Positions 1 to 57,349 of a stretch of DNA of 64,000 nt are shown in pieces. The position numbers and the translations under genes are program-made. The notes under the pieces are model-generated. The model saw nothing but the letters and a program-made list of their open reading frames with translations, had not been told where the DNA came from and ran no database searches. This DNA comes from Botryllus schlosseri (taxonomy: Eukaryota), in assembly GCA_051294905.1 (NCBI GenBank), contig CM119371.1:10294001-10358000 (forward strand), in the 5' to 3' direction. Position 1 is the stretch's first letter; every line of letters starts with the position of its first letter.

Positions 1-1100
1 GTGCATGTAGGCAAAAAATCTACTTGGGTATTCTCAAGAAGTACGAGTACTATACTTAACAACTCTGAAAGTTATCGCAGTTTGTGGCATTTGTATGCCA
101 TCGAAATTTGCGTGCTTCTCACTTACCTTATGTTGGTTTTCCTTTTCTATCTACTTTACAAGATTCAGTGTAGAAGTTTAGTGAAAGTGTAAGAGTTTAG
201 CAAAAGCAGTTTTTGATCGTAGCATTTGTCAAGGTGATACAACCGTAACCTTAAACTACTTTAAAATATAAAGTCCTAAAAGTAGGTAGTTTCTCCTGAA
301 AAACCGATTAGTAGAAGTGTAAATATCCTAGAAACATAACCACCTGTATCAGTCACTTTTCAATCCCTAATTGTAATAAAATTCCAGCAAAATTGCGAAT
401 CGTTGAGTATCGAACGATAGCCTCTATCCTACTTGCGGAAAATAGGGATTGGTACACGAGTATCAAATTAGAGTAAATTGAGTAAACTTGAGAGGTTATT
501 AGTGATTCTGCTGGAGTTTATATGAAGGGAAGTCCTGATAAAACCTTGATTATTTCAGAAAAGAATAGAGGGCTTCTTTCGATATTTTGATAGTCTCCGT
601 CGTACTGTCGGATGTCATGAAATTGTACACATGCCATCTAGTACTACGGAAAATGTCAAGGCTGGTACTCAATGGTTCTGTTAGTAAATATATGGAATGT
701 GTGGGAATCGAATTGGAGCGTAAAGTATGCTCCTATGGCATAGAGCCCTACGAAATGAGTCCACATACCCCGTAAAATTCCACTCCGAGCGCTGCGGCTT
801 AGCTCAAGCGAACAAGTATTTCGTACTTTAGGTGTCAAATCATCTTTCTTATGATAAATAAGCATAGGAAGAATTAATCAGAAAATTTTATAGAGTACCG
901 TAGGCATCGATATTTTGAGTGAAATGGGCTTTCTTATCTTAAATTGAAACGGAGAGAATAAATCGAAACAATTTGCAGAGTCCCGTAGGCTTCAAGACAT
1001 AGCTCAGGCTGAGATTACAGCCTAATAACGAGGGCATCGAGTGGGATGTTATAGGAAGCAAGACGAATCGATGTAAAAGTGTTGAAACTTAATTACATCT

Positions 1101-2650
1101 GTAATTCCATCACTAAAGTTGATCACGCATAGGTACGTGCTACGCTCCCGCAAACAGATTCCCGCGAAGTTGGTATAGAACTGCGTTAGTTTTAAAGGTG
1201 TTCCATCATGAAATGTGTGATGAAATTTGATATGTTCCATTGTCATACTGTCCTACACCTGTGAACCAATCTTCAAGTTGCGCATTCAATGTTTAGCTCG
1301 GTAATTACGTTATTAAAGTTGAGTATGCATAGGTACGTGCTACGCTCCAGCAAAAGTCGGTATGGAACTGCGTTAGTTTTAAAGTTGTTCAATCATGAAA
1401 TGCGTAACAAAATTTGACATGGTGCATTGTCATAATGTCTTACAACTGCGTACCGAGTTTCAAGGTGGGGAGTCGATTATTAACATGCTAATTCCGTTGT
1501 TGAAGTTGTCAATGTATAGGTACGTGCTACGCTACGGAAAAACAGATTTAGCCAAAAGTTTGTATAGAACTGCGTTGGTTTTAAAGGTGTTACATCATGA
1601 AATGTCTGACGAAATTTGGTATGATGCATTGTTATTATGTCCTACAACTGCGTACCAACGTTCAAGGTGAGAATTTAATGTTTAGCATGCTAATTCTGTT
1701 ATTAAAATTGACTATGTATGGGTATATGCTATGTTCACGAAAAACAGATATGCGTAAAAGTCGGTATTCGACTGCGATAGTTTCAAAGGTGTTCCATCAT
1801 TAGATGTGTGATGAAATTCAGCATGGTGCATTGCCATAATGTCCTACAACTACGTATCAAGTATCGAGTTGGGATTCAATGTTAAGCATGGTAATTCCGT
1901 TATTAAAGTTGGCTATGTATGGGTACGTGCTATACGCTCCCACAAAACAGACGTACGCAAAATGTCGATGTAGAGCCGCGTTAGTTTTAAAGTTGTTCCA
2001 TCCTGAAATGTGTGATGGGATTTGGTATGGCGCATTTTTATAGTCTCCTATAACCGCGTACCAACTTTCATGGTGAGAATTCAATGTTTAACACAGCAAT
2101 TCTGCTATTAAAATTGACTGTGTTTAGGTATATGCTATGTTCACGCAAAACAGATATGCGTAAAAGTCGGTATTTGACTGCGTTAGTTTTAAAGGTGTTC
2201 CATCATTGGATGTGTGATGAAATTTAGCATGGTGCATTGCCATAATGTCCCACAACTACGTATCAAGTTTAGAGTTGGGATTCAATGTTAAGCACGGTAA
2301 TTCCGTTATTAAAGTTGACTATGTATAGGTACGTGCTATACGCCTCCTGCAAAACAGCTGTAGGCAAAAAGTCAAGGTAGAGCCGCGTTAGTTTTAAAGT
2401 TGTTCCATTATGAAATGCGTGAGGAAATTTGGTATGCCGCACCATCACAATGTCCTACAACTACGTATCAAGTTTCAAGGTGGGGAGTCACATATTAGCA
2501 TGGTAATTCTGTTATTAAAGCTGACTATTTATATTTACACTCTACCGAAGACAGATTTAGGTAAAAGTTGCTATAGAACTGCGTTAGTTTTAAAGTTGTT
2601 CCATCATGAAATGTGTGATGAAATTTGGTAGGCTGCATAATCACAATGCC
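1101..2650. repeat. Tandem array of ~8 diverged ~200-bp units (satellite-like) with a dimeric higher-order repeat
   Basis: Anchor (a/g)ggta(c/t)(g/a)tgc recurs at 1131, 1331, 1518, 1720, 1921, 2126, 2327. Each unit carries gttttaaag.tgttccatcatgaaatgtgtgatgaaattt and gtaattccgttattaaagttg. Confidence 0.95.
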
Positions 2651-3693
2651 ATGGAGCTCATTTAGATACGTTTTTTAATGTAGTTACACATTCTAGTTGT
2701 TTTGATGAAGGAAAAAATCATTCGATATCTCGATACAACTAGTTTAACACGCGTTGATGTAACTTTTCTCAATTGTATGCATAGCCTACGCGAAATTGGT
2801 TACCGAATTTTTCGATTAGTTTATATACCGTATTTTATTTAAAACTGAAACTGTTAAGTACTACTTAAAGTGTTATAAAATGTGAAAAAGTGTACAAGTA
2901 GAATTAATATTATGTCATGAATAAGTAGTTTACAAATTCATACGATTTTTCTTGTTGCGTTCCGGGATAAAATGTAATTTTTCGCTCTTTTTTATTTTTT
3001 ATTTTTTCAATAAAATTAGTATTCATTTTACAAAAAACGTCGTGTAAAGGTAAAGTACTTGTACATTTTGTAGTGCTCAAGTATAAGTTTTCATACTATT
3101 ACCTTGATAAAATTTTCAGAATAGAGACTTTTGCGTAAAGTCTGTGTTGCATTTAGTTGCCAGCTCTGAAAGCAAGCAAAGTTTATGGTATTTGCGCAAC
3201 TTCAAAAATCGATAAAGTAGTCTAAAATCTAGTCACTTTTTACGTGTACTTGTACATTTTGGAGTACTCAAGTATAGGTTTGGCCTGCTTGCGCTATACT
3301 TAATGAATGTGTCATAAACACTTGAGTAGTTGGTGCGTGTAGACAACAACCTACTTGAGTACATAATTTTTACTTTTTCATTAAAATTAGTATTCATTTT
3401 ACAAAAACGTCGTGTGAAGGTAAAGTACTTGTACATTTCGGATTACTCAAGTATAGGTTTTTTCAGCTTATTATATGCTCAGTATATTATATGTCAAGAA
3501 TTGTGGAGCATTTTTGAACTTTCCTCTGCATGATCATTAGAGCTTCTATTTTTTGTTGCAGGGCAACTTTGTTGTAGCCGAAAGCGGTATTATCTAGCAA
3601 CAAGGTTTAAATGACTCGCCTCCGGCGTTTATTGATTATTTAATTACCCGTGTTCTCGTCATGCAAAAATTATGCATGTATTAGTATGAAGCT

Positions 3694-3986
3694 CAGATGC
3701 AGCAAAGTGTGTGAGACTGCCTGTAAAAATTGCGGGAATTTACATTTCTCGGCTTATAACAAATAACGACGCTGAAATTCTACTTCAGATGCAGCAAAGT
3801 TAATGCGTCTGTCTATATAAATTGCGCGAAGGTGCATTTCTCGGCTTATAGTGAATAACGACGCTGAAATTCTACTTCAGATATAGCAAATGCGGCAAAT
3901 CTGCGCGAATAGCTGCATAAATTGCGAAAAGGTGCGACTCTAATTTTTAGGCTTTATTGCAAATACCGATGCTGAAATTGTACTTA
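3694..3986. repeat. Three copies of a 92-bp tandem unit
   Basis: cagat(g/a)(c/t)agcaaa at 3694, 3786, 3878; units share ggcttat...aata.cga.gctgaaatt.tactt. Confidence 0.9.
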
Positions 3987-5195
3987 TGTCACCGGACACT
4001 ATCGATGAAATTCACATAAAATCATGCGTAGTTGATCGCGCGAAATGTACGTATAATTTTAATATATAACAATAAAACCGCGAGTGTAAAATAAATTAAA
4101 AAAGTTCTACTATACAAAATTTTCGGAGTACCGACTATTTTGTGTAAATTCTGTTATGCGCTTAGTTATTCAGTATAACGCTACTCGCAGTATAAGTGTA
4201 ACAGTCTAAAAGTAGTTTTCTATATACCTTACAAAATTGCATAGACTACGCGAAATTGGTTACTGAGGGAGGTAATTTTGTAAATAGCAACAACATAGAT
4301 TTATACCTGTTCCGTATACATAATATTTGTATAACATGATATTTGAAGGCGGAGAACTAACGAAATTGAAAAATAGCAAAACTAAATTGAAAATTTGCGA
4401 AGTCCTACCATGCAGTATTTGAGTTTTACAAATTACCCTCGAAGTGAACCAGCATGTTGGATATTATCGAAAATCCTTCGTTCCAAGCGCTACGGCTGTA
4501 ACGCAGGCGGCGTTTCATTATCGATTTAATCACCCTTATTCTAGTGACATGAAAAGGACTGAATCGTATGAAAGGTGGTGACTACAAGAATCGAGCGAAA
4601 GCGTTGTTTCACACCATTTGGTCGTGCTGGATGCGTTTTTGACGTTAACGCTATTACTGATATATTATGCTCTTTTTTCGAAATAAATGAACATTAATTA
4701 ATTAGTGATGATGCCATTTCTAAATATTTACAGAAGTTTCGTGTATCATATATAGTCTTAAATACACATAAATTGATTCTGCTGAGGAAAGTATCTAAAT
4801 GTGTACCCTCGGAAATCGTATTCCCATAAACCACGCCTAGTTCAACGTTGATTAGTGTCATTTCTCTAGTGTTCTCGTGAACATAGACAGCCTTAAATAC
4901 ACATACAATCATGCAAAGTTGATCATGCGAAATGTGCGTAGAATTTTAATATATCATCATAAAATCGCGCCTAGTTCAACATCGATCAGTGTTATCTGAG
5001 AGGTCATATATTATCCGCAAAAATACAAAGTCCTAAATACACATAATGGGATACCTGGCGAATATATTCTTGTATAGACATCATAGTTTTCGAAATTTAT
5101 GTATAATCTGAATGTTATTTTTCTCTCGAAAGCATGTTATTATTAGGTTTCGGAATTTAATCACTTTTACAAAATGTACCCTTAGGGTATGAAAA

Positions 5196-5265
5196 GGGGC
5201 GTGGCAATTAGGATGACGTGGCGTTCTCTGATTGGACGGCGTATAAAGTCGCTACCCTCACTACT
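5196..5265 (+). promoter_or_regulatory. Compact cluster of GC-box, CRE/ATF-like, inverted CCAAT and TATA motifs, ending in ACTACT
   Basis: GGGGCGTGG 5196-5204, TGACGTGG 5214-5221, CTGATTGG 5228-5235, TATAAA 5242-5247, ACTACT 5260-5265. No downstream gene identified. Confidence 0.45.
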
Positions 5266-7034
5266 CCGATCTGAGAATACTTTTTAGACTCGATTTCACA
5301 AAACCGATAAATATTTCTCGCTTAGCGCGGTCATATTAGGTATAAGAGATCCGCGCAACTCGTACGCGAAATATCAAGCGGTATAAACGTATCCAATAGT
5401 CAATCACTGAATAAATCTGGTATTCTTGGCCAACCGCGTATGAAGGACACTGGCGATTTCTATGCTGTAGAGTGTAGATTGTACATCTTAGGTGGTACGT
5501 GAACGCTGTATAAAACATTAAAAAATGGAACACGGGTAACCAAAGTTTGGGCAGCACTATATCTAAGGTTGCACTTAAAACAAAAATGAATTCATGGGCC
5601 TTGTTTAGAAGATTTATTTTTTGATTCATGAAACCTTAATTATGGCGTCACAGTGCATTGGCATTGCCAATTGAAACTGTAGGGTAAATATGGGGTAAAT
5701 ATCACACCTTACGGGGGTATGTACCGATGTGGTGACCATGTATGGCTACACCTACGCATTTTTCTATACCACCTTCCAGACTAACCAACACGCAAAATGG
5801 CGAATAGATGCAATTTTTGAAAGATATTCCGTTACCGTGATACAGGTTTTTCGTTCAGTTTTTATGACAATTTCACTGGTAAAAGTGATACAGACTTATC
5901 TTAAACTACGCCATACTTTGCAAAGTACAAGGTTTCTCATGTAAATAGCGTCGCTGGAAAAACTGTTAAGTAGAAGTAATGCAGAGACGTAGCCAGTAAA
6001 GCAAGTCAGATTGAGAACGTCGAAAAGTAGAAGTAGGCTACTTTGCTACTGTCCAACTTCGAACACGTAGGGGTGGCTGTTGGAATAAGGTTAAGGAAGA
6101 GCCTCCATTTACCCATGATGTCTAGTCTATGCGGTCGTCGGTAAGTGCCAATGGTCGACAACTAGTGGCATAATCCTCATATATTCTGTGCTTTTTGCGT
6201 TGTCTGATAGAGAAGCATTTCTTCAACCGATGAGACCAAAACACGTATAAATATGCATTAAGAATTACTGATTAGTAAATGAGCTATCAAGGGTTGGAGA
6301 TGGAATCTGAATTTCACAGGAGGTGGGTTTGAGTTTGAAACGGGACGGCTTCTGACGCGCAAGACCCTGGCAACGTTAATGTTAGTAGTGATGGTTGGAA
6401 CAACATCACACCACAGAACACATGTATCACGTTTCATGACAAACGACGATACGTCATGTTCTCCAGTTGTTGCTCTACAACAATATTTCAAGTAAAATTC
6501 GCAAATAAAACTAGAACTGCTTTCCAAACTATGCAACCAGAACTAGTCAAAACCACTTGTTGGTTTACCGTGACATAACTAGATCTACAGTTTGTACAAG
6601 TCTGCTGTGGCCAATTCATAACTCATACACTGAAAACGACTGCACTGTAGTTTGTCAGCATAAATCAGATACAACTGTTCCGCGTTTGTTCTTGCTCTGA
6701 CAGCGTCAACGAATGTATAACGACATTTGCATCTTTCACACGTATTCATCGAATAAGTGACCGCCATATGTTGTACGAGTCTTAAAAATTTACACCGAAG
6801 GTACGCAATATTATGTAGCATGATAGTGACAGGCTTGTAGTAAAATAAGAACAATGTTCACGACTAGCAGTGAGATCTGCATAACAAGGTTCCGCTATAC
6901 CAATGCCTCTCGACGGATTTAAGCAGTGCCCGTTTATTTGAGAGAATGTAGTAGTTCATTTCGACGCCTTCCCATCTTACAATTCTATCACAAACATCTG
7001 CAGTTCAGAAATGATTAATTACCGGAACCGCTCA

Positions 7035-8573
<1,539 letters not shown>

Positions 8574-9799
8574 CTTTCAAGTTCAAAGTGTTACGAACAA
8601 ATTTAGAACAAATATAATAAACTCTATTCAGCTTAGCTCATGACAATATGTCCATAACTGCCATGTATGATAGTGTGAAACTAATCAAAACAAAGATTTT
8701 CATCAGATTGTATTGCAATTGCCATACAATATTGTACTACATACAAAAATATCAACAGCACAAAATTTACTGTTCTCATGATAGTTTCGACTCATTCGAC
8801 ACCTTCCTAACTTTTCATTGTATCGCAATTTTGTGGTGTATTGAACTGATAATAATTGCTAATAAACTGGACCGAACAACAGTTCGCGTGAGTTTTTTGA
8901 CAGCTTCAACGAATGCACAACGATAGTTGCCTCTTTTACGTGTATTCATCAGATAAGTATGACCGCAATAGATTAAAGAATTCTCACAAATGAGCACCAT
9001 TATACGTAGGCCTATACAGCATGTTAGCGAGAGGCATGTAGTAAAATACGTTCAATGTTCAAGACAAGCACTGGACACAGAGATCGGCAAAATAATTTGG
9101 TGTGTACGACACGCACATGTATCGTTGCACAAATCCGTTTCGACGGAGCGTTCGATTTGTGGTTGCTGCCCCCAATTTGCCGAATGGTTACGTGTAAGGC
9201 TGACCACAATGATTCGAGCAATCAAATATGAATAGAACGAGTCAAGTAGTGAGAGACGAATTTTCTGTGCCCTGTGACGAGGCGTTTTCCAATATGGAAG
9301 GTTGTGAATCTTGGTCGTATCGCTGCATACGAAACATGCAGTACCAAGCTGGGGATTGGAATCGCTCAGATGTACTACAAAAACCGTCATTCATGAGGCA
9401 CACACCATTCCAACTTTGTATTTCTTAACCGAGAATCATCCGAATCACTTTTCTAAGCAGTTTGCATGTGTACGGATGGGCTCAGATTGCAAGGACAATG
9501 TTATATTAAAAACGAAATTGCATAGTGACGACAGGCATCACACGCTAACATGGGTATGCGTCGACCGCCGCATAATTATAATTACGGTTTTACGGCTGAA
9601 TTTGGTCGTACCTCCACAGGTTGGCCAACCCTGGTCAAATAGACGTAAGAATTAACAAGAGCATCTAGCACAGTGCTTCTCAAACCCGACAATGAGCCCC
9701 CTGGTTACGCCTCTGCACTTATGCAGACTGCGGACTGGGCTATTTATAACCATCTGGCAAGGGCCAATTCCAAATGTCTGAGCTATCGCGGCGGTTTCA

Positions 9800-10000
9800 T
9801 CGAGAAACATCGAGACTGCAGTTAATGCAAGCTGAACACACGTTAACTCCATCCTATTCTACTCCAAGAGGAACCAATATGTCCTCTTACCAGTACCAAC
9901 GGTTAGATGATGACGAGAAACATTTGCTGATGACATCCCAAAAGAACTGTAAACATTGTACGATATTGCACATACGGTCATACTGTTCTGAAGCATGAAC
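9800..10000 (-). pseudogene. Degenerate ZAD/zf-AD-like exon upstream of the zinc-finger array
   Basis: After an AG acceptor at 10001-10002: VHASEQYDRMCNIVQC...W*EDILVPLGVE*DGVNVCSACINCSLD; two Cys clusters about 40 aa apart with in-frame stops. Confidence 0.35.
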
Positions 10001-10118
10001 CTGCATATTTATTGTGACAGGTAGTTACAATGTAATGCGTATCTGATACACCCCAGTACGATTGGCACACCCTTTGAACCAGGAGTGGTCAACCTTTTCG
10101 GCCAAAACGACACATGAG

Positions 10119-11959
10119 CAATGTTCCCTCTAATATTTCACGAGTCTGCGCAAACACGTTAACTCACTGGGCAGGCCCTTGGACAATAGTGCGCAACCAG
10201 CCCCCCACACAAGGTGATAAGCCGAACCCCCAGACCCCCTATCGGGCTTTCCGCTTTTTGCTGATACTTATTATCTACATCGGGGGCCGGTTGTGTGATT
10301 GTCGCGCCTGAACGCGCCAAGCGCGAAAATTTTATATGATTCATGATTGAATCGGTCAATATGATCGGGAATTGCATAAATGCTGCATTGCTATCCATTT
10401 TATCCTCTTTCTGCTCACATAATCAGATTTACCGGTAAAGCTGATCGAGTGAGATGTGTTAAAGGTAGGTCCTCTAAATATTAATTCAACATCTTCGCGC
10501 GCACCCGTTGGTAAATGACTTCATTATATGATGCTATTTCGTGACCTCCTATCGGCTATGTCAAAAGACATGGAAATCGTTCAAACGTACTAAACTAAAA
10601 CACGAACACGATATAAAATTGGCATTTCTCTACTGGCAAATAATGTTCCCTCGACATGGCATTTGTCTTGTTGTGGGACTTGGATCGCCAGCACATGAAC
10701 ATTCAGCGCCAGCCATTTACGCGCCTATGGACAATTAAACTTATATGTATATGAATCGAAGTTTTCGGTCAGCATGTAGGGCAGTCCTTTTCGGCCAAGG
10801 TTTTATCGCTATGCTGATCGTTTTGGCGCACTTCTCGGAGTCGCATGTCACATAGCCTATAACTTCATATGTCTTGGTGCGTCGTGGCAAGGTAATGGCC
10901 GACGCCCAAGTGCCCATTTCTCTTAATCACGCGTATTTTTTGTTGTGGGAAGGGTACCCAATAATCAAGATAGTTGACAAAATTAATTCGCAATTGAAAA
11001 ATTCCCAAAAAATACACCATGATTTATGTTAATTCACGAAATAATTTTGGGCTCCCTTCGATCTCGGCCTCCTAATTGAGGGTTTGGGTGTGGCAGTTAC
11101 GGTCCTGAGGAAATCTTACGCAACGTTCATGACACGCGGAGAAGACTATGCGCTAGTTTCTCACAGATTAACTTAGAGAGCCGGCCCATTGTTATTTATG
11201 ACTTTGTTAAACCATGTTAGTTCGCCATTCCCAGAAAATAATGCGCTATTGAAATGATATCAGTATCGCTCACGCGTACGAGACCGCACTAAAAGAAAAT
11301 AATTTTCGGACCGACAAGATAGCGTAATGGTTAAGCGTCCGGCTTCTTGATCGGTAGGTCGTGGGTTCGATTCCCGGCCGGGTCAGACCAAAGACCTGAT
11401 TAGTAACGCTGGTATCCATGGCTTCCCTGCTTGGCTCTCATGCATTACTGGGATAGCTGGATTACTGGGATAGGGAGGGGTGGTGGTGCATGACTTAGAA
11501 AGCCGTAAAGGCTATATCTGCACTTCCTTGTCCAGCTGCATATATGCACATCATGCACTCATGGTATGCATATGCGCAGATCTCGTGTATGTGTATCATG
11601 AGTCGGTGTATATGCCGCAAAAACATCAAGGACAAAAATAAACCACGTCTTTTATTCCTTTCCTTTCCCTAGGCGCTCGTGATTGCAAAGTCTCATTTCT
11701 TCACGGAGCGCAATATTTTCCTTTGCGGACCGCACTTGTACCTCGGTGAAAGACTTCAGCGATAACACTATTTGCCCCTGGCAATGTTCCCTCTAATTTT
11801 TCACGAGTCTGCGCGCCTGCGTGGTCCCTTGGACAACAGTGCGCAACGACTTGAAAAAACATCACTTCGGATTTTTTGTGCGCAACTTAGATTTTCTGTG
11901 CGCAGAGACCGCTTCAGCACTGCGCATTTGCGCACGTGCGCAGCTTAGAGGGAACATTG
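10119..11959. mobile_element. Non-autonomous hAT-type element with 8-bp TSD, carrying nested repeats and a SINE
   Basis: TIR caatgttccctcta / tagagggaacattg; TSD cacatgag at 10111-10118 and 11960-11967. Confidence 0.9.
11313..11669 (+). mobile_element. tRNA-derived SINE (MetaSINE-like core), copy 1
   Basis: A-box-like tagcgtaatgg, B-box ggttcgattcc, core ccgggtcagaccaaagac...ttccctgcttgg, (ttcct)n tail; highly similar to 20201-20533. Confidence 0.9.
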
Positions 11960-14900
11960 CACATGAGATTTGTGAACCATTGCGAGGGCCACTTGAATGT
12001 TGATGACATCTTTTAGTCGTCCAATAGGAGTGAACCAGATTAGGAACCGGTGTAAACAATATTTATCTTACTACCCATCAACATCAACAACAACTAGGTC
12101 ATGAAAACTCAGTGTGCAGGAGGCGCAAAAATTTTTCAAAGTTTATTAATAGATTCGTTCAATAATATTGTTACTTGCATATATTAGGTGTAGCCTCCGT
12201 ATACTTCTGGGCTCATTAGACAAGGTCAGAATTATTGGCCCTTGGACTTATCACTATCGAAGATTTTGCAAACATGCATTTATAATTTTGTATAATGGTT
12301 TCATCGCCGACGATCTTTTTCCGAGTACAGACGCGAAGTCTGATGTTGGACGACACGGTCTCTCATAATTGGATATACAGCTAGACTCATTTCCGTAAAT
12401 GTAGAGTATTTTTAATTTTCAGGAGGAGGTAGCAATACTAAGAGTAAGAAATCGAGTGACAATCAATCGATCGAAGTGCTTAGAATAAATTCAAGTCGAA
12501 TAAATCTGCCACGAAATATTCTACTTCATGGTTATATATGTAGATTTACGAAAAATGTGGCGTTGCCAAAGCGTCGGAACTGATATTTTAGTCATCAACA
12601 TCCTAAATTTCGTGGTCAGGTTAATCAAATTTTTGGTTGGCCTTGCAAGCTCATAATAAATTATGTGGATAATTCATTTTAAATTGAAGTAATTTCAAGA
12701 ATTACCTCACGGGCACCGTTTCCTTTAAGCTGCTCATGAACGCGGCCGCGCACTGCTTTTGAAGTCGCCGCGCACGTACAAACGTCAGCCTCGCACAAGA
12801 AAGCCGAAAGGGGGACCTTTTATTAGACGTTACCCTTTGTTGCCTTAGGGACTGCGCAGTGAGTTGGTGAGTGCGCGCGGATTCGTGAAAAATTAGAGGG
12901 AACATTGCTCGCGGGTCACTCAAAACCTTCTCGAGGGTCATATTTGGCCCACGGGCCACGAATCAACTATCAACCTAAGTATTAGGAAACAGCTTGGCAT
13001 TTTACCCTTTATAAACTTCACATACCCATAATAAAATATGCAAGCCTTTGAGAAACTTCAAATTTTCGCAAACTCACAAAAAAACAAAGTTCTATCACAA
13101 TACACGTCTAATCCATTACTACCAAATACTTGTGTATAAAATGAGCTGTGCGGTGTGCATCAACAACAGTGTTAGAAGGCAAAAACTATTACAACATGAT
13201 TTTGACTTGCAGCAAAAAGATGATGATGAATATTTACTGCAAATCTTGCTGAATTCTGCTGTATGAGTCAGTTGCATGTCTTAACCTTCAGGTTTGGTTC
13301 TAGATTTGAAATTTCCAAACAAATACACAAATTTACTTCAAATGGTGTTCATTATGAGAGTCATCGCGTACATTTGGCTTTCATTACCACATGCTCCTTC
13401 ATAACAGTGACATTATACAAAGTGTGTCAATTGAGTAATTGATCATACTAACTACCATACAAATCTTTAAATCTCAGTTCCAAAAGGCATATTGCATCTT
13501 GATTTCATAGGGAAATATCTACCGAGCTTTCTGCTATTTCGGAAAATACCTCCAACTACAAATATCAAAATTTCAGCTTTTTCAAATTAGACTAGAAGCA
13601 GAATTATAGCTGTCAGTTTTTTCTAAATTAGAATAGAATTAGATTTTTTGCCACATTTTTTTCAATCAAATTAGGGAATAATTAGAAGGATCGCTACACA
13701 GTTTTTCCCAAATTAGATTAGAATTAGTATTATTGAATCTGCGAAAACTTGAACATAAACTCAGGCTCATTTCATGGCAATTCATAGTTCATTCACATAA
13801 GTATGATAATGGCAACTGGCTGTACACCAAAATTAATTCGTTTCTGCTAGCATTTTCAGGGAACCAGAAATTACATTAGAATTAAAATTAGAGCATAGAA
13901 ACATTACACAAGTTAGATTGGAATTGGATTAATCGCTTAGTCTAGTCAGACAACTAGAATTATCTAGTGGTTCAAGTGTGCTGTAGCGCTGATAAGCAAG
14001 CTGTCACCCAGGTATCGGTCTACCTTACAAGTCGAGGTTAAGACTCGCTGTGAATGTATTTGCATTTTAATTCAATATTGTTACAATAATGGTATTGTCA
14101 GCTTGAAAAATACCATCAAATTAGACTGATTCAATATAAGGATCTGTTTGTATTTTGATAGAAATTCTGCTTACAGTTACAATAATAGCTGATTGTGTTA
14201 CTTGCAACAAATCCAATCACCGGCATATGGCAGTAATAATAAAACTCTTGGTATCAGAGTGCGTATGATTACAGTATTTGAAACCATCATCTCTCATCAC
14301 TGGACTTAAATCATTGCGATTGATGTTCGATTAAGATTCCAGTACTCGAGTGATTGTGACCAAACGCACTTGCTACATTAACTAACTGCGAGAGCACACA
14401 ATAGAACACTGGCATCACATTTTCAGTGTAAAATAACATCACATGTTTCGAGTTCTAGTTCCGGTTGTAGGCTATGTTCGCAGGCGCCGCTATATTTTTA
14501 AATGCACAACCAGAACTAGAACTGCTCCCTATTTAATCTCATGAACTAGAACTACTTGAAAAACAGTATCCAGTTGTTGATCATCAACTAACTAATCACT
14601 GAGGTCGTGGCGAAGTTACAGCATGAAGATATCACAGACGCGATTCTACAATCCTGACAGCTTGAATCATACAAGGCATTATTATTCCAATATAAAACAT
14701 ACCACATACTAAGCTATCTGGATAAGCCTGACTAGTTCTGACCGAGAATGTACCATTATACTCACCTACCAATATAAGTGCTACTGGTATTACTACACGC
14801 GCGCTTTCGTATTGCTTTCGGAAGTGCCGCATATCAAGTTACAATCCGGCACAAACTACAGAAACACCTCCAAGACACCCACGGACTACGTATTACAGCA

Positions 14901-15019
14901 GATGTGTTTCGACATGAATGTAGACCAGTGGTTCCCAACCTTTTTCGACTCATCGCCCCCTTTTGAAGCTTCACACCGATCATCGCCCCCCAAATATTGG
15001 GGAAACTAAAAACAGCACT

Positions 15020-15685
15020 TCGTCACCCCCCAACCCCCAGACCCCCTCAGCCAGTGGGCCTTCTGTCGCTACATATCAGCTATACCCTATTTCATGTACT
15101 GTTTGGTGAGTCACCGTATTTCGCCTAAACGCGCGAAGCGCGACAAATTTATATAATTCATGTTTGAATCGGTCAATATGGTCGGGAATTGCATATATAT
15201 TGCTATCAATTTTTTATCCTCTTTCTGCTTGCGTAATCAGATTTACCGGTAGTGCTGAGTGTGGTGTGCTAGAAAGGTAGGACCCCTAAATATTAATTAA
15301 ACATCTTCGGGCGGAATCGTTGTTATATTGACTTCGTTACATGACGCTATTTCGTGACCTCCTATATCTGCTATGTCAGAAGATATGGAAATCGTCAAAA
15401 CGTACCAAACTAAAAGACGCACATGATTTCAAATTGGTATTTCTGTACTGGCAAATAATTTTTTCCTTACGGGATGGCATTTGTCCCGTAGTGTTAAGGT
15501 CGCCAAGACAGAACATTCGACGCCTGCCAATTAAACATATATGTATACATATCGAAGTTTTCGGTCAGCACAGGGGCATTCCTTTTCGGCCAAGGCCTTC
15601 TCGCTGCTGATCGTTCTGGCACACTTCTCGGAGTCGCATGTTACATGGCCTCTAACTTCATATGTCTTGGTGCGTCGTGGTGCAG
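15020..15685. repeat. Copy of a dispersed repeat family (also 10200-11107 and, reversed, 32861-34149)
   Basis: Shared blocks such as gaatcggtcaatatg.tcgggaattgcat, aaacgtac.aaactaaaa and cacttctcggagtcgcatgt. Confidence 0.85.
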
Positions 15686-17134
15686 TCAGAGGTGGTCAGT
15701 TACGAAGTACTTCTACTTTTTAGAAGTACTCAAGTAGTTTCCCTCTACTTCTGGTACTTACTCAGGTAGATCTGATATTCTCTACTTCCACTTCTACTTC
15801 GTAATATTTTGTGATCTACTTACTTACTTTTCGCTATTTTCAGTTTGTCAAGTAGAAGTAGTTTAATCCATTGTGGTCTTCGTCTACAAAATGAAAATGA
15901 CTCGAGTGGACTCGGAGTGACTCGGAATGCCGTGAATTTGTTAGAACCATGGACGCAACAAACAAATCGCGTATCAGGGGAATAGTAATAGATCAGAAGG
16001 TCGCAGCTTGGAAGGTCGCAGCTTGGTATTTCGCTAACTAAGCAAGTAGTTATATGGCAACCATTGGCAATCTGTTAGTTACATCTTTGGTCGCTAAACC
16101 ATGTTATTAAAGCCATTTAAAGGTACCGAGTACCGTAGTGGTATACGCTCCAACGATGTAACAGCAATAGGCCGTTCGGCGTTCCGACATTTCAATCTCA
16201 CTAGGACACATTCATTAATATATTTATATTATATTTATATTTTTTCTGCTCCTATATTTGAAGATACTTGGCCATGAGATTAATAGCCTACTTATCAGAA
16301 GTATACCCGAATCCTGGATTGGAATTACAATGCTCAACCTAAAATTGTTTTGATATCAGATCAGTCTCTATTATCAATCTGTTAAATTCAAAATATTCAT
16401 AGTAGCTTTTTACTGAATCAATTACCTGTTCAAAAGTAATTGTAATTGTAATGATAATTGTAATTATTACATTTTTAGCATTGAGTAATTGTAATTGTAA
16501 TGTAATTGAAACATGCAAGGAAGTAATTGTAAATGTAATCGTATTGAATTAAAATATTGTAATTGATCCAACTCTGCTGTGCATGCATTTTTTCTATACC
16601 ACCATCATTGCCGTCGGTTTTTATGTATTTTGGTTGGATGAAAATAAAGACTCTCTCTCTCTCTTCTGATTTCTACACAAAACAAAATATGCGTAGCCGA
16701 CGCACGACCGTAAGGTGTCGCTATGACTTCATCAAGTGATGAACTGATATTGATTTCTTAGATTGCGAATCCGTCCGACAGCGCTTGAGTCACTTCAGTT
16801 TTCCCTGCTCTGAGGACCTGTCGGTCCGAATCCGGAAAATCTCAACCAAAACCGATGTGAATCCGAATAATGCCGTCCAAAATCCAAAATAATCTGAATC
16901 GTATTACTTTCTCGAAAAATCTGTACTGTACAGTTGAGCAGTGAATATTTTTTACAAAGGCTGCTCAAAAGATTCGGTGTCCTAAACATAAAAGCTAGCC
17001 TATGCGAAGACTAGAAATTGCAAAGTTCATGTAGGCCTTTCAATTCCACTGCGGCCACTGCCCCGAAAACTTCGATGACTTCTTTACCTCGGTATCGGAA
17101 GTGCATAAATACCATACACGCGCGTCCACGTCGT

Positions 17135-17746
17135 TCAACATATGGTGACGGTCGTAGAGAATATCGATGTTTGCTCAAGCTGTTGATGGCTATACGGAAT
17201 TCCCATTGCTCTCGTTGCAACCAAGTTAGACACCAAAGATGCTAGCCGCCTTGTAGCCGACGACATTGCTGTCGCTTTTCCTCTTTCATGCAAAGGAAAC
17301 CAATTCACGGACACTAGCTGTGCTATCGGTATTATAACTCCGGCAGCGGAACCGGATAGAAACATCCCAGCAACTAGGAGTCCGAATCTTCTTAACAAAA
17401 CTCCCATTGTAACCAGCAGAGTGGCGAATCCGTTTAAGACGCAGGCTAGCAAAGTGATGTGCCGAAGACTGATCCAACCACCGATCACGCAAATCACTAC
17501 AACGCTAGTCAGTCTACCGACGAGATTGGCGGTTGCTTGTAAGTCAGTCGTGGCTGGATCGATTCCGAAATATCTCGACGTGATATCGTTGACAAATGAG
17601 AATGATCCGAAACCGAAGACATCCAATACGGTGATGAAACACACTATCGATGAAATGCCCCATCTTTTCCACACGACGCGATGCCTTTCCCCCTCCAACA
17701 GGAAACTTCTGTTGGTTTCTGAATCACGAGCACTCTCATTCGACAT
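17135..17746 (-). pseudogene. MFS transporter, SLC49/FLVCR-like, N-terminal half only
   Basis: ATG at 17746; RVVWKRW before TM1, SLRHITLLACVLNG, NWFPLHERGKATAM, about five hydrophobic helices. TGA at 17135-17137, shortly before a candidate gtaaag donor; no downstream C-terminal half recognised. Confidence 0.75.
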
Positions 17747-20200
17747 AGCCAACACTAGGCCTGATGTCTCTCACCAGGTTAACTTTCAGAAAATTTTCCG
17801 CAATGACCAATCAATGAAGGAAACGAAATTTCCTGCAGAGCTACACCAGCGACTGGGATCATTCGTGCCGATACGGAGGGAAACACGGAGAGCCATATGC
17901 TCTGAATACCTATTTCTGAGAAAAGAAGCCGACAATAATGCGACCAAGCTATATCACTAAGTAACTGCATGAAAAGTATTAACCTCATTTGTGGTCCTAT
18001 ATATGTTGTGGTTTATTGATGATGCTGAAACCATGACTGTCGACAATTATTATCAATTGTTGTACACTTGTTGTGTAGGCTTCATTGTTTTCAAACAGCT
18101 ACCACAATGTCCGTAGGACCCATTTCAAGTGCTGGTATATCATACGTACCATAAAACTGTATAGTTGTTTTGTATCATTTTCAGCTTAACTCAGATCAGA
18201 GGTCTCAAACTCAAATGTGCTCGCGGGCCAATTTCCTAGTTTTGATGAAGCCGCGGGCCGCAGCATCAATAATAGGTATATTTACCGTGTAATTTCCAAG
18301 TAGGCCTTATTTGACGGGAGCTTGCAGATAGGCATTCCATAAACATCGTGAAAATGTAATTTACTATTGTACCATTCACGCTTGACACGGAAAAAATCAT
18401 TGTTTTTGTGCCGGGCACAATTTGTTTAAATATTGAGTTATAGACATTATGCGAAAGGATGCATCATGACATCGTCAAACTGTCTGCCCGGGTTATAGCA
18501 TTGCAGCTAGTGGACCTTTGACGTGCAACAATTGTATGCAGAATATTTTAAAATCTACTGAAGATTGATTTGATATCAGACGTAGTTTAATTTGGTCCTT
18601 GATGTTTTGCGGCATATATCCACCAACCAATGATATACAATTATACATGTTACTGTCATTGCCAAAGTCAGATTACATCAGCATCAGATTTTGCCCTCAA
18701 TTTAATATTGGAACATATCAATAACAACTTAAATATATTCATTATTGAGCCATAGTATTAGCATTGTTTCTTAGCCTTAGCGATCGTAGTCCTCGTTCTT
18801 CCAATAAGATTTCTCGTATACATTGTTCATTTTCAACACAATTTCTGATGGTACCTATATTAAAATTAGAAAGCCCATACATACAAAATCGCGCGTAGCG
18901 CGAAGACCAGCATTTTTCAGTTGAATAAATTGGCCAAGAAAATATTCCACAGCATATAGGCCTAATTCCACAATGCATATTTTACCTCATGATGTGGTGC
19001 GTCGTAGCCCGAAGGGGTCTACGAACCCTGCTTAAGAACCCCTGGAATAGAAATGTCCAATCACCGATGAATTCATTGTTGTTACAGCTGTAGAGCGTAC
19101 TACTACCTTACTTACCTTACCTTAAGTAGCGGGAAAAATACAGTCTGATGGGTAGGGGGTATGGGCTTGTCACCCTATAGGGGGCCCAAGACCAACGTTT
19201 GAGGGAGAGCTGATGAAGTGCTGTTTCGGCCCTGATGACATGCACACAAAATCACGAACGGCTGATAACAACGCACAGTTATACGGCATAACAGACACAA
19301 CTTCAGTTATAAAATAGTCGAGTAACAACACAACATTTTACCATGGAAATATTTCAATAATGTTATGTTGTTATCCGGCTATTTAATAGAAGATTTGGGG
19401 CCGTGATACTGTGAGTGTGCGTTCGTGATTCTGTGTACTTGTCACGAGTCATTTTCGAAAACATGGAAACTGACTCGACTGTACTTGGGGCAAATTGTAT
19501 ATTGACTCGACATGTTCTCGAGTCATTTCGCATGACTCGATTAAATCATATGACTCGAAACTCAGACGTTATAACTACGAAGAATAGTATGCTACCACAA
19601 TATTGGTTTGTCGTTTATCAGCACTGCCACGACTATATTAGTCGTCCTATAGAAGTAGAGTTGACTTGTGACTTGACTACAACCCTGGTTGCAGTTTATC
19701 ACAGAGGCGGTAACATATGACCCACATATCAGACGACATAATCCATTGGTCCGAATACGACATAGTCTTTCGCCAATATTCAACGTGTCAAAGGGATCTT
19801 TGACGTCATATCATTGTGAAAGTAATTTGGTCACCGGTGATCTGCTCTCAATACCAGGTGGAGGATTTCGAATGCATAAGCCCTGCTTGAAGTGCGAGGG
19901 ACTCGCATACTCCAATAGAGTGGTGGAAACTACAGGTCGACCGCATCAAGTCAACTATATATGAGACACACCGATGTATTAAAATCACTATTATCTGTAA
20001 TACAGCAGCTATTGCTCAAGATATCATTTATTGGAAGTTCACTCCTGATCTCACGTTCTGACACGTTCTCATGTTTTGACACGTTGTCTGACTCGTTGTG
20101 TATAGTCAAATAGTACGAGATCAAAATTGTTTATAGGCTTCTATTATCCTCGGTAATGGCACTGTTCGTGTGATGTATCAAATTTGCCAACGATTCTCAC

Positions 20201-29400: not shown

Positions 29401-30278
29401 CATGAGTGCGAATGAACCAAACAAACAAATCCGTTTTCGTGAATCTTGAAAGCCAAATTCCTGATTTGTTTCTCATTTTGAAAACCGCTAGTGGCCGTTA
29501 ATGAGTATCCAGATATGTCTTGTCACCAGAGATGAGCGGATTTGAAATTTCTATGTCCTAATCCAATCCAAATCCGAACCTTCAAATCCTAATCCAAATC
29601 CTAATCGATAACTTTTCCATATTCAAGTCCATGTGCAATCCTAATCCGAATCCAACTGAAAATTCAGAAAAAAAGTAATTTATGCAATGGAGGGATTCGA
29701 AAATTTCCTTTCAAAACCAACGATTCACTTGATTCAAGATAACCTAGTAACCATAAGTACATTAATAACTGATCTGAATAAAGTTTGTCGCCATTCGCCG
29801 CACGACATTTCAATTTCCCAGAAATTACATAAATCCAATCCAAATCCTAATCCGTTCTGAAAAAAATGTCTAATCCAAATCCAAACCAAATCCGACAAAA
29901 TTTCACAAATCCTGTTTTTTCAAAACCTAATCCTAATCCATGCTCATCTCTGCTTGTCACGGAGAATCCTTCAAATTCACATTTCCATTTTCCAGCTACT
30001 TCCGCATCGGACCCGGATCCGACCGCTACAGACTGCACGTATCCGGATACTCCGGGAATGCAACCGAAGATGGTCTCTCACCTCACAGCAATCACCAATT
30101 CTCGACGAACGACGTGGATCATAATAGTTGCGCTTCCTACTACGAATCAGCCTGGTGGTATGACAACTGCTACCACAGCAATCTGAATGGAAACTTCAAC
30201 AAAACAGACGTGAAGGGAATTCGGTGGTGGTCTGAAAACCTGCGGTTCTCGGAGATGAAGTTTCGAAAAAGATTATGA
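23461..30278 (+). CDS. Secreted fibrinogen-related domain (FReD; ficolin/angiopoietin/MFAP4-like) protein, 229 aa, 6 exons: 23461-23521, 23575-23633, 23696-23785, 23933-24029, 25054-25153, 29996-30278
   Basis: Exon phases join into 690 nt of open frame: signal-peptide-like MSLKIGIPLLFGFAIYLRSSA, WT|VFQRRINGDVDFHRGWDDYKKGFG..GDLWL|GLDELH, YS|YFRIG...YRLHVSGYSGNA, FSTNDVD, AWWYDNCYHSNLNG, FSEMKFR. Introns 1-4 GT-AG, intron 5 GC-AG. Exons 1-3 are less certain than 4-6. Confidence 0.88.
24107..24942. mobile_element. hAT-type MITE in FReD intron 4 with aaaagttgca subterminal repeats
   Basis: Ends tagggcaa / ttgcccta; TSD gttatgac at 24099-24106 and 24943-24950. Confidence 0.9.
24569..24856 (-). 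mobile_element. Probable solo LTR (288 bp) nested in the MITE
   Basis: On the minus strand TGTAGCGT...ACGCTATA termini and an ATTAAA signal; flanks ctac/ctat (4-bp TSD, 1 mismatch); three internal ~30-bp tandem units (gacggt.act.aaag.cgactg). Confidence 0.55.
26357..29330. mobile_element. Non-autonomous TIR element with (GGAGCC)-type subterminal repeats, containing nested insertions
   Basis: caggactttggagc vs gctccaaagccctg (13/14 inverted match); ggagccggagc arrays at both ends; TSD not convincing. Confidence 0.6.
27568..28082. mobile_element. hAT-type MITE (second copy at 60477-60980)
   Basis: TIR tagggctgggca / tgcccagcccta; TSD ttcacgac on both sides. Confidence 0.92.
29527..29952. mobile_element. 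hAT-type MITE with (AATCC)-rich subterminal repeats
   Basis: TIR cagagatgagc / gctcatctctg; TSD cttgtcac at 29519-29526 and 29953-29960. Confidence 0.92.
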
Positions 30279-30381
30279 AAGGAAATGCAGATATTCACAT
30301 GTGTGGCCCATTCCAACCGTCAAAAGATATTGATTTTTTTAAGGCCTATATCATGACATGACCATATCTTTTCAATATTTT

Positions 30382-31172
30382 TAGGGATGGTGTGAACTTG
30401 AGGTTCACGTTTGCGCTCTGTGTGTGAACCTCATAAATTTAGAGGTTTTCGTTCACAAACGAACCTTAATAAGATCTGCACTGTGAACATTTTTCATATG
30501 TTACATTTTACACGTCATTAAAACATATTTGGTTGAAATTCTTTGCATTTCAATTTCGAAGCACTCTATGCATAACGCAGGCAGCATAAAGACATTAACA
30601 CTAAACGAGCATGCACCGCCTCGCCCATCTCCAAAACTTTACTTGCTTCGTAAAAAAAGTTTGCTCGAAATAAGCAGCTTTGTGTTTGTGAATATTTAGT
30701 GACATCCAGCAAGGGTATGGGATCCATCATGATTTGATATGTTGATTGTATACTAAAAACCAAATCCGTGCGATTGGGGTGTTGGCTACTGTATAACTTG
30801 TTTATGGGTAATATCGGTAGCAAGTTTAGAAACCCCTTTAACACTCGGCTCAGTATCAATGTGCAATAGTCAGACGCAAAATAGATTGCCCCAGCCGGCC
30901 TTGACCGTGAATGCGTAAGCTTTTTCTTGCAAGTCCTCATCGAAATTGTTGGCAAAGCCACCGAAGTTATTGATTTTATGAGAATATTATAGCGTCTGAT
31001 GGCTCCAGTTTATGCCTTTGGTGACGTATAAAAAGTCAGCAAGTCGTCTCTAGGTATCTTGTATATCACTCACTGCAATGTAGGGCTGGAAGTAGCAATA
31101 TGACGTCACGTGACGTCATGAGGTTCGCGTTCGCGTTCACACAGAACCTTTCAGAGGTTCACACGATCCCTA
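30382..31172. mobile_element. hAT-type MITE, tagggatggtgtgaac family (also 55399-57337 and 55925-56849)
   Basis: TIR tagggatggtgtgaac / gttcacacgatcccta; internal sequence collinear with the copies at 55.4-57.3 kb; TSD degenerate. Confidence 0.85.
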
Positions 31173-32610: not shown

Positions 32611-34582
32611 CAGTGATTCCCAACCGCGGCCCCCAACTAGCCTTCTTGCGGCCCCCACAAAAATATTGAGAAATCGATCTAAGAAAAAAAAATTATAAAA
32701 TACTCTTGCTTGGCTTGGAGTCTGGAGTTTTCAATTGAGATTGCAGGCAAGTTGTGAGTAGACTGCTAAGATTACGTCACTGCTGTTTCAATGCAATGTG
32801 CCCTAACTTTCCAGTTGAACAGGCAGTACCTATAGATATAGGTATAGTTAGAGGAATTGACAGGACCGTAACTGCCGCACCCCAAGCCCCCCAATTAGGG
32901 GGAGCGAGCTCGAAGGGGGCCCAAAATATAGCATAAATTAAAGAGTATTTTATGAAATTTTATGCAACTTTTTCAAAGATTTTTCGCGCTGCGCGCGATA
33001 TCAAGTTTCCAAGTACCTTAATTATTGGGTACTCTTCGACCAAGATAAAATACGCAAGATTTATAGAAGTGGGCATATCGGCGTTAGCCATTACCGCGCC
33101 ACGCCGCACGAAGACACATAAAGTTTTAGGCCATGTAACATGCGACTCCAAGAAGTCTGCCAGAACGATCGGCAGCAAGAAAACCTTGGCCGAAAAGGAC
33201 TTCCCTTACGCTGACCGAAAACTTCGTTATGTATATTCAAAATACATATAGGTATAATTGACCATAGGCGCCTAAATGACTGGTGCCGAATGTTCCTGTC
33301 TTGGCAATCCTAACGTCACGAGACAAATAGGCTACCATCCCGCAGGGAAGAATTATATGCCAGTGAAGAACTACCAATTTGAAATCGTGTGCATCTTTTA
33401 GTTTAGTACGTTTGGGTGATTCTATATTTTTTGATATAGCAGACTGAAGGTCACGAAATAACAAATAGCATCATGCAACGAAGTCGTACCAACGGGTCCG
33501 CCCGTCCGAATATGTTTAGTTATTATTTACGGGCCCTACAAGACACCTCACTCAGCTCTACCGGAAAATCAGATTACGTGAGCAGAGAGGACAAGTAATT
33601 GATAGCAATATATATGCAGTTCCCGATCTTATTGACCTATTTTATTTTGAATTATCGAAAATTTTCGCGCGCTGCGCCGGCTCTCCAAACGGGGATCCTG
33701 ATTTCGTGGCAGAAGCGAACAACGGCACGGGGGGTCGGTTTATCACCCTATGGGAGCTCAAGACCTAAGTGTTATGTGAGGGGCCTGACCCTGACGAAGT
33801 GCTGTTTCGTTCCTGCCACCGCACGAAGATGTTTAATTATTATTGAGTGGTCCTACCTTTTCAAACACAACTCTGATTACGTGAGCAGAAAGAGGATAAA
33901 AATTGATACCAATATATATGCAATTCCCGATTATATTGACCGATTCAATCATGAATTATAGAAATCTTTCGCGCTTCGCGCGATTTGTCGAGAGAAGCGG
34001 CCTAAAACGGACACCCGATTTAGATGATAAATAGCGGTAAACTGCCATCTAGCCTGAGAGGGTCTGGGGGCTTCGAAGTTCGGTCTATCACCCTGGGGGC
34101 CCAAGAGAAACGTTTTTTGGGGGGCTGACGAAGTGCTGTTACGGCCCTGAGTATTGATAACTAATTTACGGATAGATGTGCAACAAGTGACTCACGATTG
34201 AATACGCCGAGATGCGTACTGCTTAGCCGGCAAAAAGCAGCATAATTGGTAGTCCTATAGCTCGCGACCCAAGCATCCGAATAATTTGATATGTCGGTGT
34301 TTATCGAAAGCAAGTGTCGCACTGATTCCAAAAATACGAATTGAAATCTCGCCATGGCAATAAAACTACTCCGAAATAGCCAGCAAAGGTTGATTGTTCT
34401 GAACAACGGGAGCGCGGCAACACAATGGCCAATGGCGTCAAGCGAATGATCGGAACAATGCCAATTTTCATATTTTGGTGACTATTTTGGGTTTCTTTCA
34501 TTGCCCTGGTATTCGTGCGGCCCCGGCCGTACTCTGAAATTCTAAATTTGGCCCTGCCATCGAAAAAGGTTGGGAACCACTG
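32611..34582. mobile_element. Charlie/Buster-type non-autonomous hAT inserted in the methyltransferase
   Basis: TIR cagtgattcccaacc / ggttgggaaccactg; TSD ttctagat at 32603-32610 and 34583-34590. Confidence 0.92.
32861..34149. mobile_element. Nested non-autonomous TIR element (dispersed family)
   Basis: TIR caggaccgtaac / gttacggccctg; flanks ggaattga/agtattga (6/8); reverse-complement homology to 10200-11107 and 15020-15685. Confidence 0.75.
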
Positions 34583-35407
34583 TTCTAGATGTAGGGTGCG
34601 GCAACGGAGAAATAACGAGATTGTTGACGAAAAATTTCCATCATACGGTTGGAGTGGATCCCAGTTTTCCTATGATATCAAACGCCATTGACCACGACAC
34701 GAAGTGTCCAGAAATTGGATTCAAAGTGACCCGGGCGGAGGAATTGCCGATAGAAGACAATTCTGTTGCTGTTATTACCGGTATATCGATGCTAAACTAC
34801 GTTGACCTGCAGGCGTTCATTCCAGAATGCAAACGAGTGCTGAAATCAGATGGAGTCGCACTGTTTTATCGCGATCAGATATCGAAAATTCTCTCCGCCG
34901 GAGACGACAGTCTCCCAGTAATCGACGCTCCCGTCAAGCTGATGACAAAGTGCCTTTCGGTAAACGTAAGGAAAATGTCGCATTCCAGCTATCACACGTA
35001 TGACCTTCATCAAATTCAATTTGTCGAGATCAACTGGATAATTAAAGCAGAATTGTGAATGAAATTGAGTTCACGCACCCGTCGCTATCGACGCTCGGAT
35101 CGTGGTGTCGTTTCTACTCTCATCTGTCGTTAAACGAGAAGGTGGCCGAGAGCGGCATGAATCCAGCCGCCGAACTTGTGCAATCCGTGAAAGAGAATTG
35201 GTCGATACAGGATAGGGATCCTGACGACATCAAAATTAAAGCAGTCTACAAGACTGTAATGATTCTGTTGCAATAACACCTCACTAAAGGTCAATAATGC
35301 AAAAACATTGGAATAATATATCCGTATATGCTGTTGCGCATCTTGTGTTGGTTAATGAAATTATTTTTCTTTCTTGCAAAACATTTTCATTATGACAAGC
35401 ACCAAAC

Positions 35408-36946
35408 CAGTGGTTCCCAACCCGTGGTACGCATACCACTAGTGGTAGCCTACGTGAAGGTCTTCTAGGTGGTACGCGAGTAGATTCAGGTTTATTTTCG
35501 GCCGAAGGGAGTGATTAGATCAGGAAGGTTTGATTTTGAGTTTTTTTAGCATCGCTTTCTCGTATTCGACGCTAGTTTCTCACGCTATTCCCCAGCTGTT
35601 AATTTTCCCTTCTACGTGGGAGTGCGAGAAAGGATTTTCATCCCTAATGACTATCAAGTCGAAGAAACGAAACCTACTTGTTGCGCCCATGCATGACTTT
35701 CGATGCGCTGTGAGCTGACTTATGCCACGCATCGACTAGCTAGTGCAAGGGCTGCCAACCGTGGCCCGCGGGCCAAATGTGGCCGCGAGAAGATTATGAG
35801 TGGTCTGCGAGATAATTCGCGAAATTACTTATAATATCAAGTAATAAATTACTTAGCTAATTTACTGTGAACTTCCAAGACCAACCAAAAACTTGAGTAG
35901 TCTGACCCCAACATTTGGGATGTTGATGACTTAATACCAGTTCCGACGCATAGGCGTAGCCAGGTTTCAGCAAAACTTTTCCTAGATCTCCCTATGTGAC
36001 CATGACCATAAAGTAGAATATTTCGTGGTAGATTAATATTTTGCTTGATATTTTTATTAGTACTTCGCGCGATTTATTGCCACTCAATTTCTTGCTTTTT
36101 GTAGCCCTTCCTGGATATAAAAATATGCCCAATCCAATTAATTGACTATATTGACAATTGTGAGAGAACGTGCCGTCCAACAGCCGAATTCGCGTCTGTA
36201 CTCGAAGCGATGATGATGAAGATGAAGATGATCGTCGATGAAAATCTGGCACGAAATGATAGACGCATGTTCACCAAAATCACCGCTAATAATATGTCCA
36301 AATAATCCTGTGTTTGCCAAGTGAGGCCAGTGGTATATAGAGGTGACTCGCAATATATGCAAGTGACGTTAGTATTGGCCGAACTCATGCACTAACTTCG
36401 AAATATTTTCGCGCTTCGCGGGGTTACTTCATCACTGCACTGTGCACACTCACATTTCATGACATAATTGTTATCGATTTTGATGCGTAGTAATATAAGT
36501 CTTGTGTTCATCATTACCTAATCCGGTTCGCTTCTATTGGGTGGCTAAAAAAGATCACCATCATTCAAGTGGTCATTGCAATGGTTCGCAAATCTCATGT
36601 GGCCCTTAGGTCGAAAAGTTTGGCCGCCCCTGAGCTAGTGGAATAAATGCCGCCATAGCATTAAATAAGTTGGCTTTTGTTGTTTATTGTCAGTTCATTA
36701 TCTTGTTCTTCTTGTGACTGGGGGTGAAAAAAAATGAATTCCATGCATCCCATCAGCCCTGACTGATAATGCCTACTTTAATAGAATTTGTTATTACACC
36801 TCGCATAGTTTAAATACGTGCTTATGACGTCTTAAATGGTGGGATCATTTTTGACCGCCTTCGGCGCGCGTAACTTGTAGGTGGTAAGCGAGCACTGCAT
36901 AAAACCTCGAAATGGTACGTGGGTGGAAAAAGGTTGGGAACCACTG
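35408..36946 (+). mobile_element. Internally deleted Buster/Charlie hAT with a C-terminal transposase remnant
   Basis: TIR cagtggttcccaacc / ggttgggaaccactg; TSD caccaaac; peptide LLIFPSTWECEKGFSSLMTIKSKKRNLL...DFRCAVS matches the ZBED5/SCAND3-type catalytic-Glu/dimerisation region. Confidence 0.9.
35746..36632. mobile_element. Charlie-type MITE nested in the Buster remnant
   Basis: Ends caagggctgccaa / ttggccgcccctg; TSD agctagtg at 35738-35745 and 36633-36640. Confidence 0.88.
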
Positions 36947-57337: not shown

Positions 57338-57349
57338 GTAACTATACAT

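Follow-up and report, generated by a model that had tools for sequence, protein, structure and literature searches.

A candidate Maverick/Polinton-type terminus closing a gene-poor, repeat-built arm in the genome of Botryllus schlosseri

Among vertebrate Mavericks (also called Polintons), the commonest end motif is 5′-(AGT)2//(ACT)2-3′ (Barreat and Katzourakis, 2021, PMC8097293; here and throughout, cited statements rest on parts of the sources named). AGTAGT occurs 713 times in the supplementary files of that work, and the end motifs accepted there are (AGT)2//(ACT)2, (AG)3//(CT)3 or similar. The same elements have target-site duplications (TSDs) of 6 bp and terminal inverted repeats (TIRs) of 46-1447 bp and are 12.7-24.6 kb long; most of them have accessory regions of open reading frames (ORFs). 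Two other kinds of replicon or transposon invite comparison. The inverted terminal repeats (ITRs) of adenoviruses combine a core origin with sites for NF I and NF III and with Sp1 and ATF sites (PMC5717082, PMC11946086). Helentrons end in T runs, have a 3′ palindrome (PMC4067079) and often contain satellite-like arrays (PMC7492417). The locus compared with these systems here is in the tunicate Botryllus schlosseri: a stretch of 64,000 nucleotides (assembly GCA_051294905.1, contig CM119371.1, positions 10,294,001 to 10,358,000 of the forward strand; "the window" below), whose first 5265 bases ("the arm") are a candidate for the right end of a Maverick/Polinton-type element.

The arm probably ends in a Maverick-type terminus. 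The further step, held at slightly better than an even chance, is that it forms the outer part of a right arm whose element is of the Maverick/Polinton type, gene-poor and non-autonomous, and ends at the ACTACT of 5260-5265. A Maverick-type end is the best reading because the published 3′ motif stands at the main composition boundary of the window, behind a motif cluster that is unique there, with host repeats just beyond. What the locus has in common with Mavericks/Polintons (polintoviruses, adintoviruses) is thus an (ACT)2 right end and a large insertion-like block, not of the miniature inverted-repeat transposable element (MITE) kind, with a sharp edge in composition.

An earlier note on this DNA, made from the sequence alone, had set the arm apart from the rest of the window, and for base composition this is confirmed: its GC content is 0.359 vs 0.405 for the remainder, below that of all 107 other 5265-bp segments (the lowest of those, which bears a long interspersed nuclear element (LINE), has 0.364). 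The strongest GC change-point in the 64 kb falls at 5178 (interval 5100-5644), and its score was matched by none of 500 block shuffles with 250-bp blocks, none of 500 with 500-bp blocks, 10 of 500 with 1000-bp blocks and 30 of 500 with 2000-bp blocks. ACTACT lies 82 bp from it; the probability of an end-type motif within 100 bp by chance is 0.115. Dispersed host repeats return about 220 bp past 5265, and none was found in the arm at standard sensitivity. To that extent the claimed lack of such repeats in the arm stands, but not as a unique trait, since in 3 of 11 other blocks they likewise cover 0.01 or less.

Just inside the end lie a GC box, a CRE/ATF-like site, a reversed CCAAT box and a TATA-like hexamer (Table 1), the first three of which (5196-5204, 5214-5221 and 5228-5235) we take, from their consensus sequences, to be of Sp/KLF, CRE/ATF (cAMP response element) and NF-Y type. 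Reading of the sequence and a motif scan placed all the motifs, including the candidate TSD ccgatc at 5266-5271, where the earlier note had put them. In the whole 64-kb window there is one cluster in which the 70 bp before a TATA-like box hold GC, CRE and CCAAT motifs, and the strict four-motif cluster appeared in 0 of 100 simulated windows, counts to be read with the motif classes having been picked post hoc, with the sequence already in view. The ACTACT starts 13 bp past the TATA-like box, and the probability of an end motif within 30 bp after a TATA by chance is 0.018. To judge from its sequence, the TATA-like box could be either a promoter TATA box or the AT-rich core of an origin. Elsewhere in the window, a weaker promoter-like cluster at about 54880-54965 has a TATA-like box on the minus strand and two of the three upstream motif classes.

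The CCAAT box presumably fits NF-Y and, unlike that of the Mastadenovirus ITR, not the NF I palindrome. Otherwise the arrangement is like that ITR, in which Sp1, ATF and CCAAT-type sites crowd together close to where a protein-primed replicon ends (PMC5717082, PMC11946086); the likeness is one of layout only.

The coding content of the arm bears on what kind of element could end here. No ORF of at least 100 amino acids is present in 1-5265, and 0 of 50 arm ORFs of at least 40 amino acids match Pfam at E 0.01 (a set drawn from all but one small part of the arm). Polinton families are likewise absent from the 75 ORFs of at least 85 amino acids beyond 7000, in agreement, for the ORFs scanned, with the earlier statement that the window contains no Polinton gene; an Rfam scan and a tRNA scan each returned nothing. 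In intact vertebrate Mavericks the ends have the TIRs and the mostly ORF-bearing accessory regions described above, unlike this locus, where no core gene was found in the 5.3 kb beside the end. The absence of genes from such a length therefore points to a gene-poor form, and the arm is a better fit to a non-autonomous element than to an intact Maverick of the vertebrate type.

As had been claimed, the arm is built of internal duplications. They cover 0.42 of it and include an array of 7.4 copies of a 202-bp unit, families of about 85, 92 and 135 bp, and one whose copies are spaced about 190 bp apart; eight units of the 202-bp array have 69-93% pairwise identity. The short repeat of 3037-3480 has an inverted copy at 4-57, a similarity which suggests that the sequence at the left window edge forms one unit with the arm's middle. 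A weaker copy of the same repeat lies outside the arm at 15704-15752 (E 2.7e-3).

Table 1. Features of the arm, its candidate terminus and the adjoining flank (positions in the window).
Feature	Position	Strand	Basis and remarks
Putative Maverick-type right arm, cut by the left window edge	1-5265	.	Non-coding, AT-richer than the rest
Inverted copy of the 3037-3480 short repeat	4-57	-	nhmmer, E 7.8e-4
Old repeat fragment, 64% relative at 5856-5977	207-318	+	Local comparison
Two-copy tandem, ~85 bp, 72%	834-1000	+	Self-comparison, repeat search
Tandem array, ~202-bp unit, 7.4 copies or slightly more	1098-2651	+	Tandem-repeat finding
Repeat of 55-90 bp, three copies, spacing 179-191 bp	3037-3480	+	Self-comparison
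Tandem of ~92 bp, three copies	3693-3989	+	Tandem-repeat finding, repeat search
Family of ~135 bp: 4007-4098, 4739-4872, 4875-5008, trace at 5023-5046	4007-5046	+	Self-comparison
GC box (Sp/KLF-type)	5196-5204	+	Motif scan; 62-70 from end
CRE/ATF-like site (TGACGT core 5214-5219)	5214-5221	+	Motif scan; 45-52 from end
CCAAT box, reversed, NF-Y-type, CTGATTGG	5228-5235	-	Motif scan; 31-38 from end
TATA-like hexamer TATAAA, outward-reading	5242-5247	+	19-24 from end; putative function
(ACT)2 end motif ACTACT, candidate right terminus	5260-5265	+	1-6 from end; class per PMC8097293
ccgatc, candidate 6-bp TSD	5266-5271	+	Directly after ACTACT
Host dispersed-repeat fragments in the flank	5489-5558 (with 36878-36945), 5742-5798 (with 38221-38277)	+	Repeat comparison, nhmmer

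Several observations weigh against a Maverick-type end at 5265. First, some of the repeat material is not confined to the arm. The old fragment at 207-318 matches 5856-5977 at 41 bits, where 60 controls gave at most 34, and this similarity spans the claimed end. Sequences related to the 202-bp unit, about 60% identical, also occur within a hAT element, at 50184-50522 (E 1e-14 and 2e-7; the reversed control was empty). Because of these two matches, part of the arm looks like ordinary genomic repeat material, which weakens the idea of a wholly foreign block; both can be explained as old repeat material common to several elements. Second, the composition edge is less significant with 1000- and 2000-bp blocks and its interval extends to 5644, and two of the three other repeat-poor blocks contain a LINE or a hAT element. 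Third, the motifs are less striking when taken loosely or singly: with loose motifs and the TATA omitted, 8 of 100 simulated windows had three sites within 80 bp before an end motif, the hexamer ACTACT is common by itself (21 occurrences in the 64 kb), and the TATA-like box is oriented outward, as an ordinary promoter's would be. Fourth, only a right end is visible in the window. No inverted partner of the terminus was found within the 64 kb (best local score 13 for 100 bases), ccgatc followed by AGTAGT, as expected of the left end with its TSD copy, is absent from it, and viral, metagenome and prokaryote collections, which are unlikely to include this animal, yielded no further true copy of the terminus. 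The five loci returned by those searches are all chance matches: an exact scan gave one in viral contigs (a 19-bp match in a phage-like contig) and 0 in metagenomes; two gapped-motif scans of viral contigs gave 2 loci devoid of further similarity and 0, and one of metagenomes gave 0; in prokaryote genomes a gapped-motif scan gave 2 bacterial loci with no AGTAGT upstream.

The hAT-like element just mentioned occupies 49741-52247. Its 14-bp TIRs are perfect, its TSD is 8 bp long, and it contains a fragment of DUF4371 at 51376-52119. Between two and four relatives of the 202-bp unit of 1098-2651, all decayed, lie within it; the unit is therefore common to different mobile elements.

The proposal of a Polinton right terminus thus comes through in part: its end motif, cluster and composition edge hold, but the 207-318 similarity that crosses the end and the sharing of the 202-bp unit with the hAT element count against it. 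Among the features that define Mavericks, the one seen in the window is a 6-bp end motif of an accepted class (ACTACT, at one end only), so membership of the family is not proven. The evidence is a set of moderate coincidences, none of them decisive.

How far the same coincidences could be produced by something else has to be weighed for each alternative. It is unlikely that the cluster is an RNA polymerase II promoter, be it an ordinary one of the host or an orphan, with its plus-strand start at about 5270-5274; the promoter would then border an old region, rich in AT and derived from repeats, and ACTACT would be there by chance. The layout of a TATA promoter, with GC, CRE and CCAAT motifs upstream, is present as a match to consensus, and the four motifs stand in textbook order and spacing; the frequency of ACTACT in the window and the old repeat fragment on both sides of 5265 also suit a promoter. 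The surroundings do not favour it, however. Of the plus-strand ORFs in 5266-17200, which a candidate promoter there could serve, 0 of 51 match Pfam (a search that would miss small exons and a non-coding RNA), and the recognised gene closest by, a broken zinc-finger array, runs on the opposite strand. Such a cluster stands at no other gene in the window, and a promoter leaves the step in composition at the same spot unexplained. The zinc-finger array itself (C2H2 type, 7062-8576, minus strand) has about 17 fingers and crosses three reading frames near its 3′ end; on this reading of its frames it is a pseudogene or a product of assembly indels. On either side of it stands one copy of a 200-bp direct repeat (6671-6872 and 8876-9073, 73% identical).

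Somewhat less likely again is the end or interior of another DNA transposon with satellite-like tandem repeats, whether a non-autonomous Helentron (HINE), a CACTA element starting from 5259 or an unclassified one. HINEs often have short arrays of 140-180-bp monomers (PMC7492417), and the arm is like non-autonomous Helentrons (HINE/DINE-1; PMC4067079, PMC7492417) in being non-coding and in having internal satellite-like arrays. The occurrence of the 202-bp unit in a hAT element of the same window would also suit a transposon of another kind, and CACTA is present at 5259-5263. Against a Helentron, an element without TSDs, the expected flanking T runs (PMC4067079) are missing: 5265 is followed by ccgatc, and the nearest T run is at 5281-5285. 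Where a 3′ palindrome is expected, 8-35 bp from the end (PMC4067079), folding gives weak hairpins only, and, unlike HINE/DINE-1 elements, the arm is much longer and more complex. For Helentron subTIRs (11-15 bp), a search with 11-mers gave 20 scattered inverted matches, mostly AT-rich, a count that has no shuffle control and comes from a locus with one end visible. Against a CACTA element, the best TIR partner in the window for a start at 5259 agrees in 18 of 32 bases, short of a CACTA...TAGTG pair.

It is improbable, finally, that the terminus belongs to an autonomous Maverick with genes of its own, in which the 5.3 kb would be taken up by a long accessory or cargo region and the core genes would lie left of the window: the evidence for the end is the same as for a gene-poor element, and nematode Mavericks have 2-5 kb of poorly conserved cargo between TIR and integrase (bioRxiv 10.1101/2022.07.12.499685), but that cargo is GC-rich and gene-bearing, whereas the arm is AT-rich, has no ORF of at least 100 amino acids and 0 of 50 Pfam matches, and consists to 42% of internal duplication.

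The arm lies in animal DNA whose GC content is about 40%. Fragments of host genes occur in the window together with a LINE, the hAT element and numerous short dispersed repeats. The host fragments are of an MFS transporter (17135-17770, minus strand), a fibrinogen C-terminal domain (29937-30278, plus strand) and an S-adenosylmethionine (SAM)-dependent methyltransferase (34546-35058, plus strand). The LINE (44220-47381, minus strand) has a PHD finger, an endonuclease and a reverse transcriptase, and is split over two stop-to-stop frames. Two further structures with inverted repeats lie towards the right. Those at 55391-57340 (77% and 85%) are nested, have relatives at 30381-31162 and are probably one MITE within another; at 57350-59795, an element of about 2.4 kb has 532-bp inverted arms that are 96.8% identical, and its ORFs have no Pfam match.

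If the arm does belong to a gene-poor Maverick/Polinton-type element, Maverick and adenovirus biology suggests how it might move. With neither polymerase nor integrase in the arm, the element would depend on an autonomous Maverick for its copying and insertion in trans. Synthesis by this helper's protein-primed polymerase B would begin, by slide-back priming, at the AGT-AGT end, and insertion by its retroviral-like integrase would duplicate 6 bp of target, here ccgatc. Copying by a helper polymerase and insertion by an integrase are carried over from the Maverick family (PMC6431247). By analogy with the adenovirus ITR, the CCAAT, CRE and GC sites might draw host transcription factors to the origin, or they might act as a promoter at the end. 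The outward TATA-like box, given the usual spacing between a TATA box and its start site, would put transcription initiation near 5270-5274, within the candidate TSD.

The arm may also be one half of a palindromic element. No long inverted repeat was found within 1-7050, and the centre of any palindrome would therefore lie left of base 1 and of the window. In its fullest form, which is unlikely, the proposal makes the arm the end of a giant Maverick satellite, palindromic and gene-less. Its terminal 70 bp would carry a compact host-factor block (NF-Y, CREB/ATF, Sp/KLF and the TATA-like box), acting both as a helper of the protein-primed origin, in the manner of an adenovirus ITR, and as an outward promoter. 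Were it true, the start site would lie in the TSD and each insertion would drive transcription into the flanking host DNA. No description of a host-factor or CCAAT block at Maverick ends was found in literature coverage that excludes most subscription papers, and within that same coverage nothing was found on ascidian Polinton/Maverick inverted repeats or, to judge by titles and the beginnings of abstracts, on non-autonomous palindromic Mavericks.

A single probable terminus, from a class of mobile element already known, is modest news by itself. It would become more than that if the host-factor block proved to be conserved at the ends of many copies: a fixed CCAAT-CRE-GC layout would then offer a direct handle on the start of Maverick replication, which to our knowledge has so far only been inferred. 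An outward promoter at many insertion sites, if true, would likewise give these elements a route by which to alter the transcription of their host.

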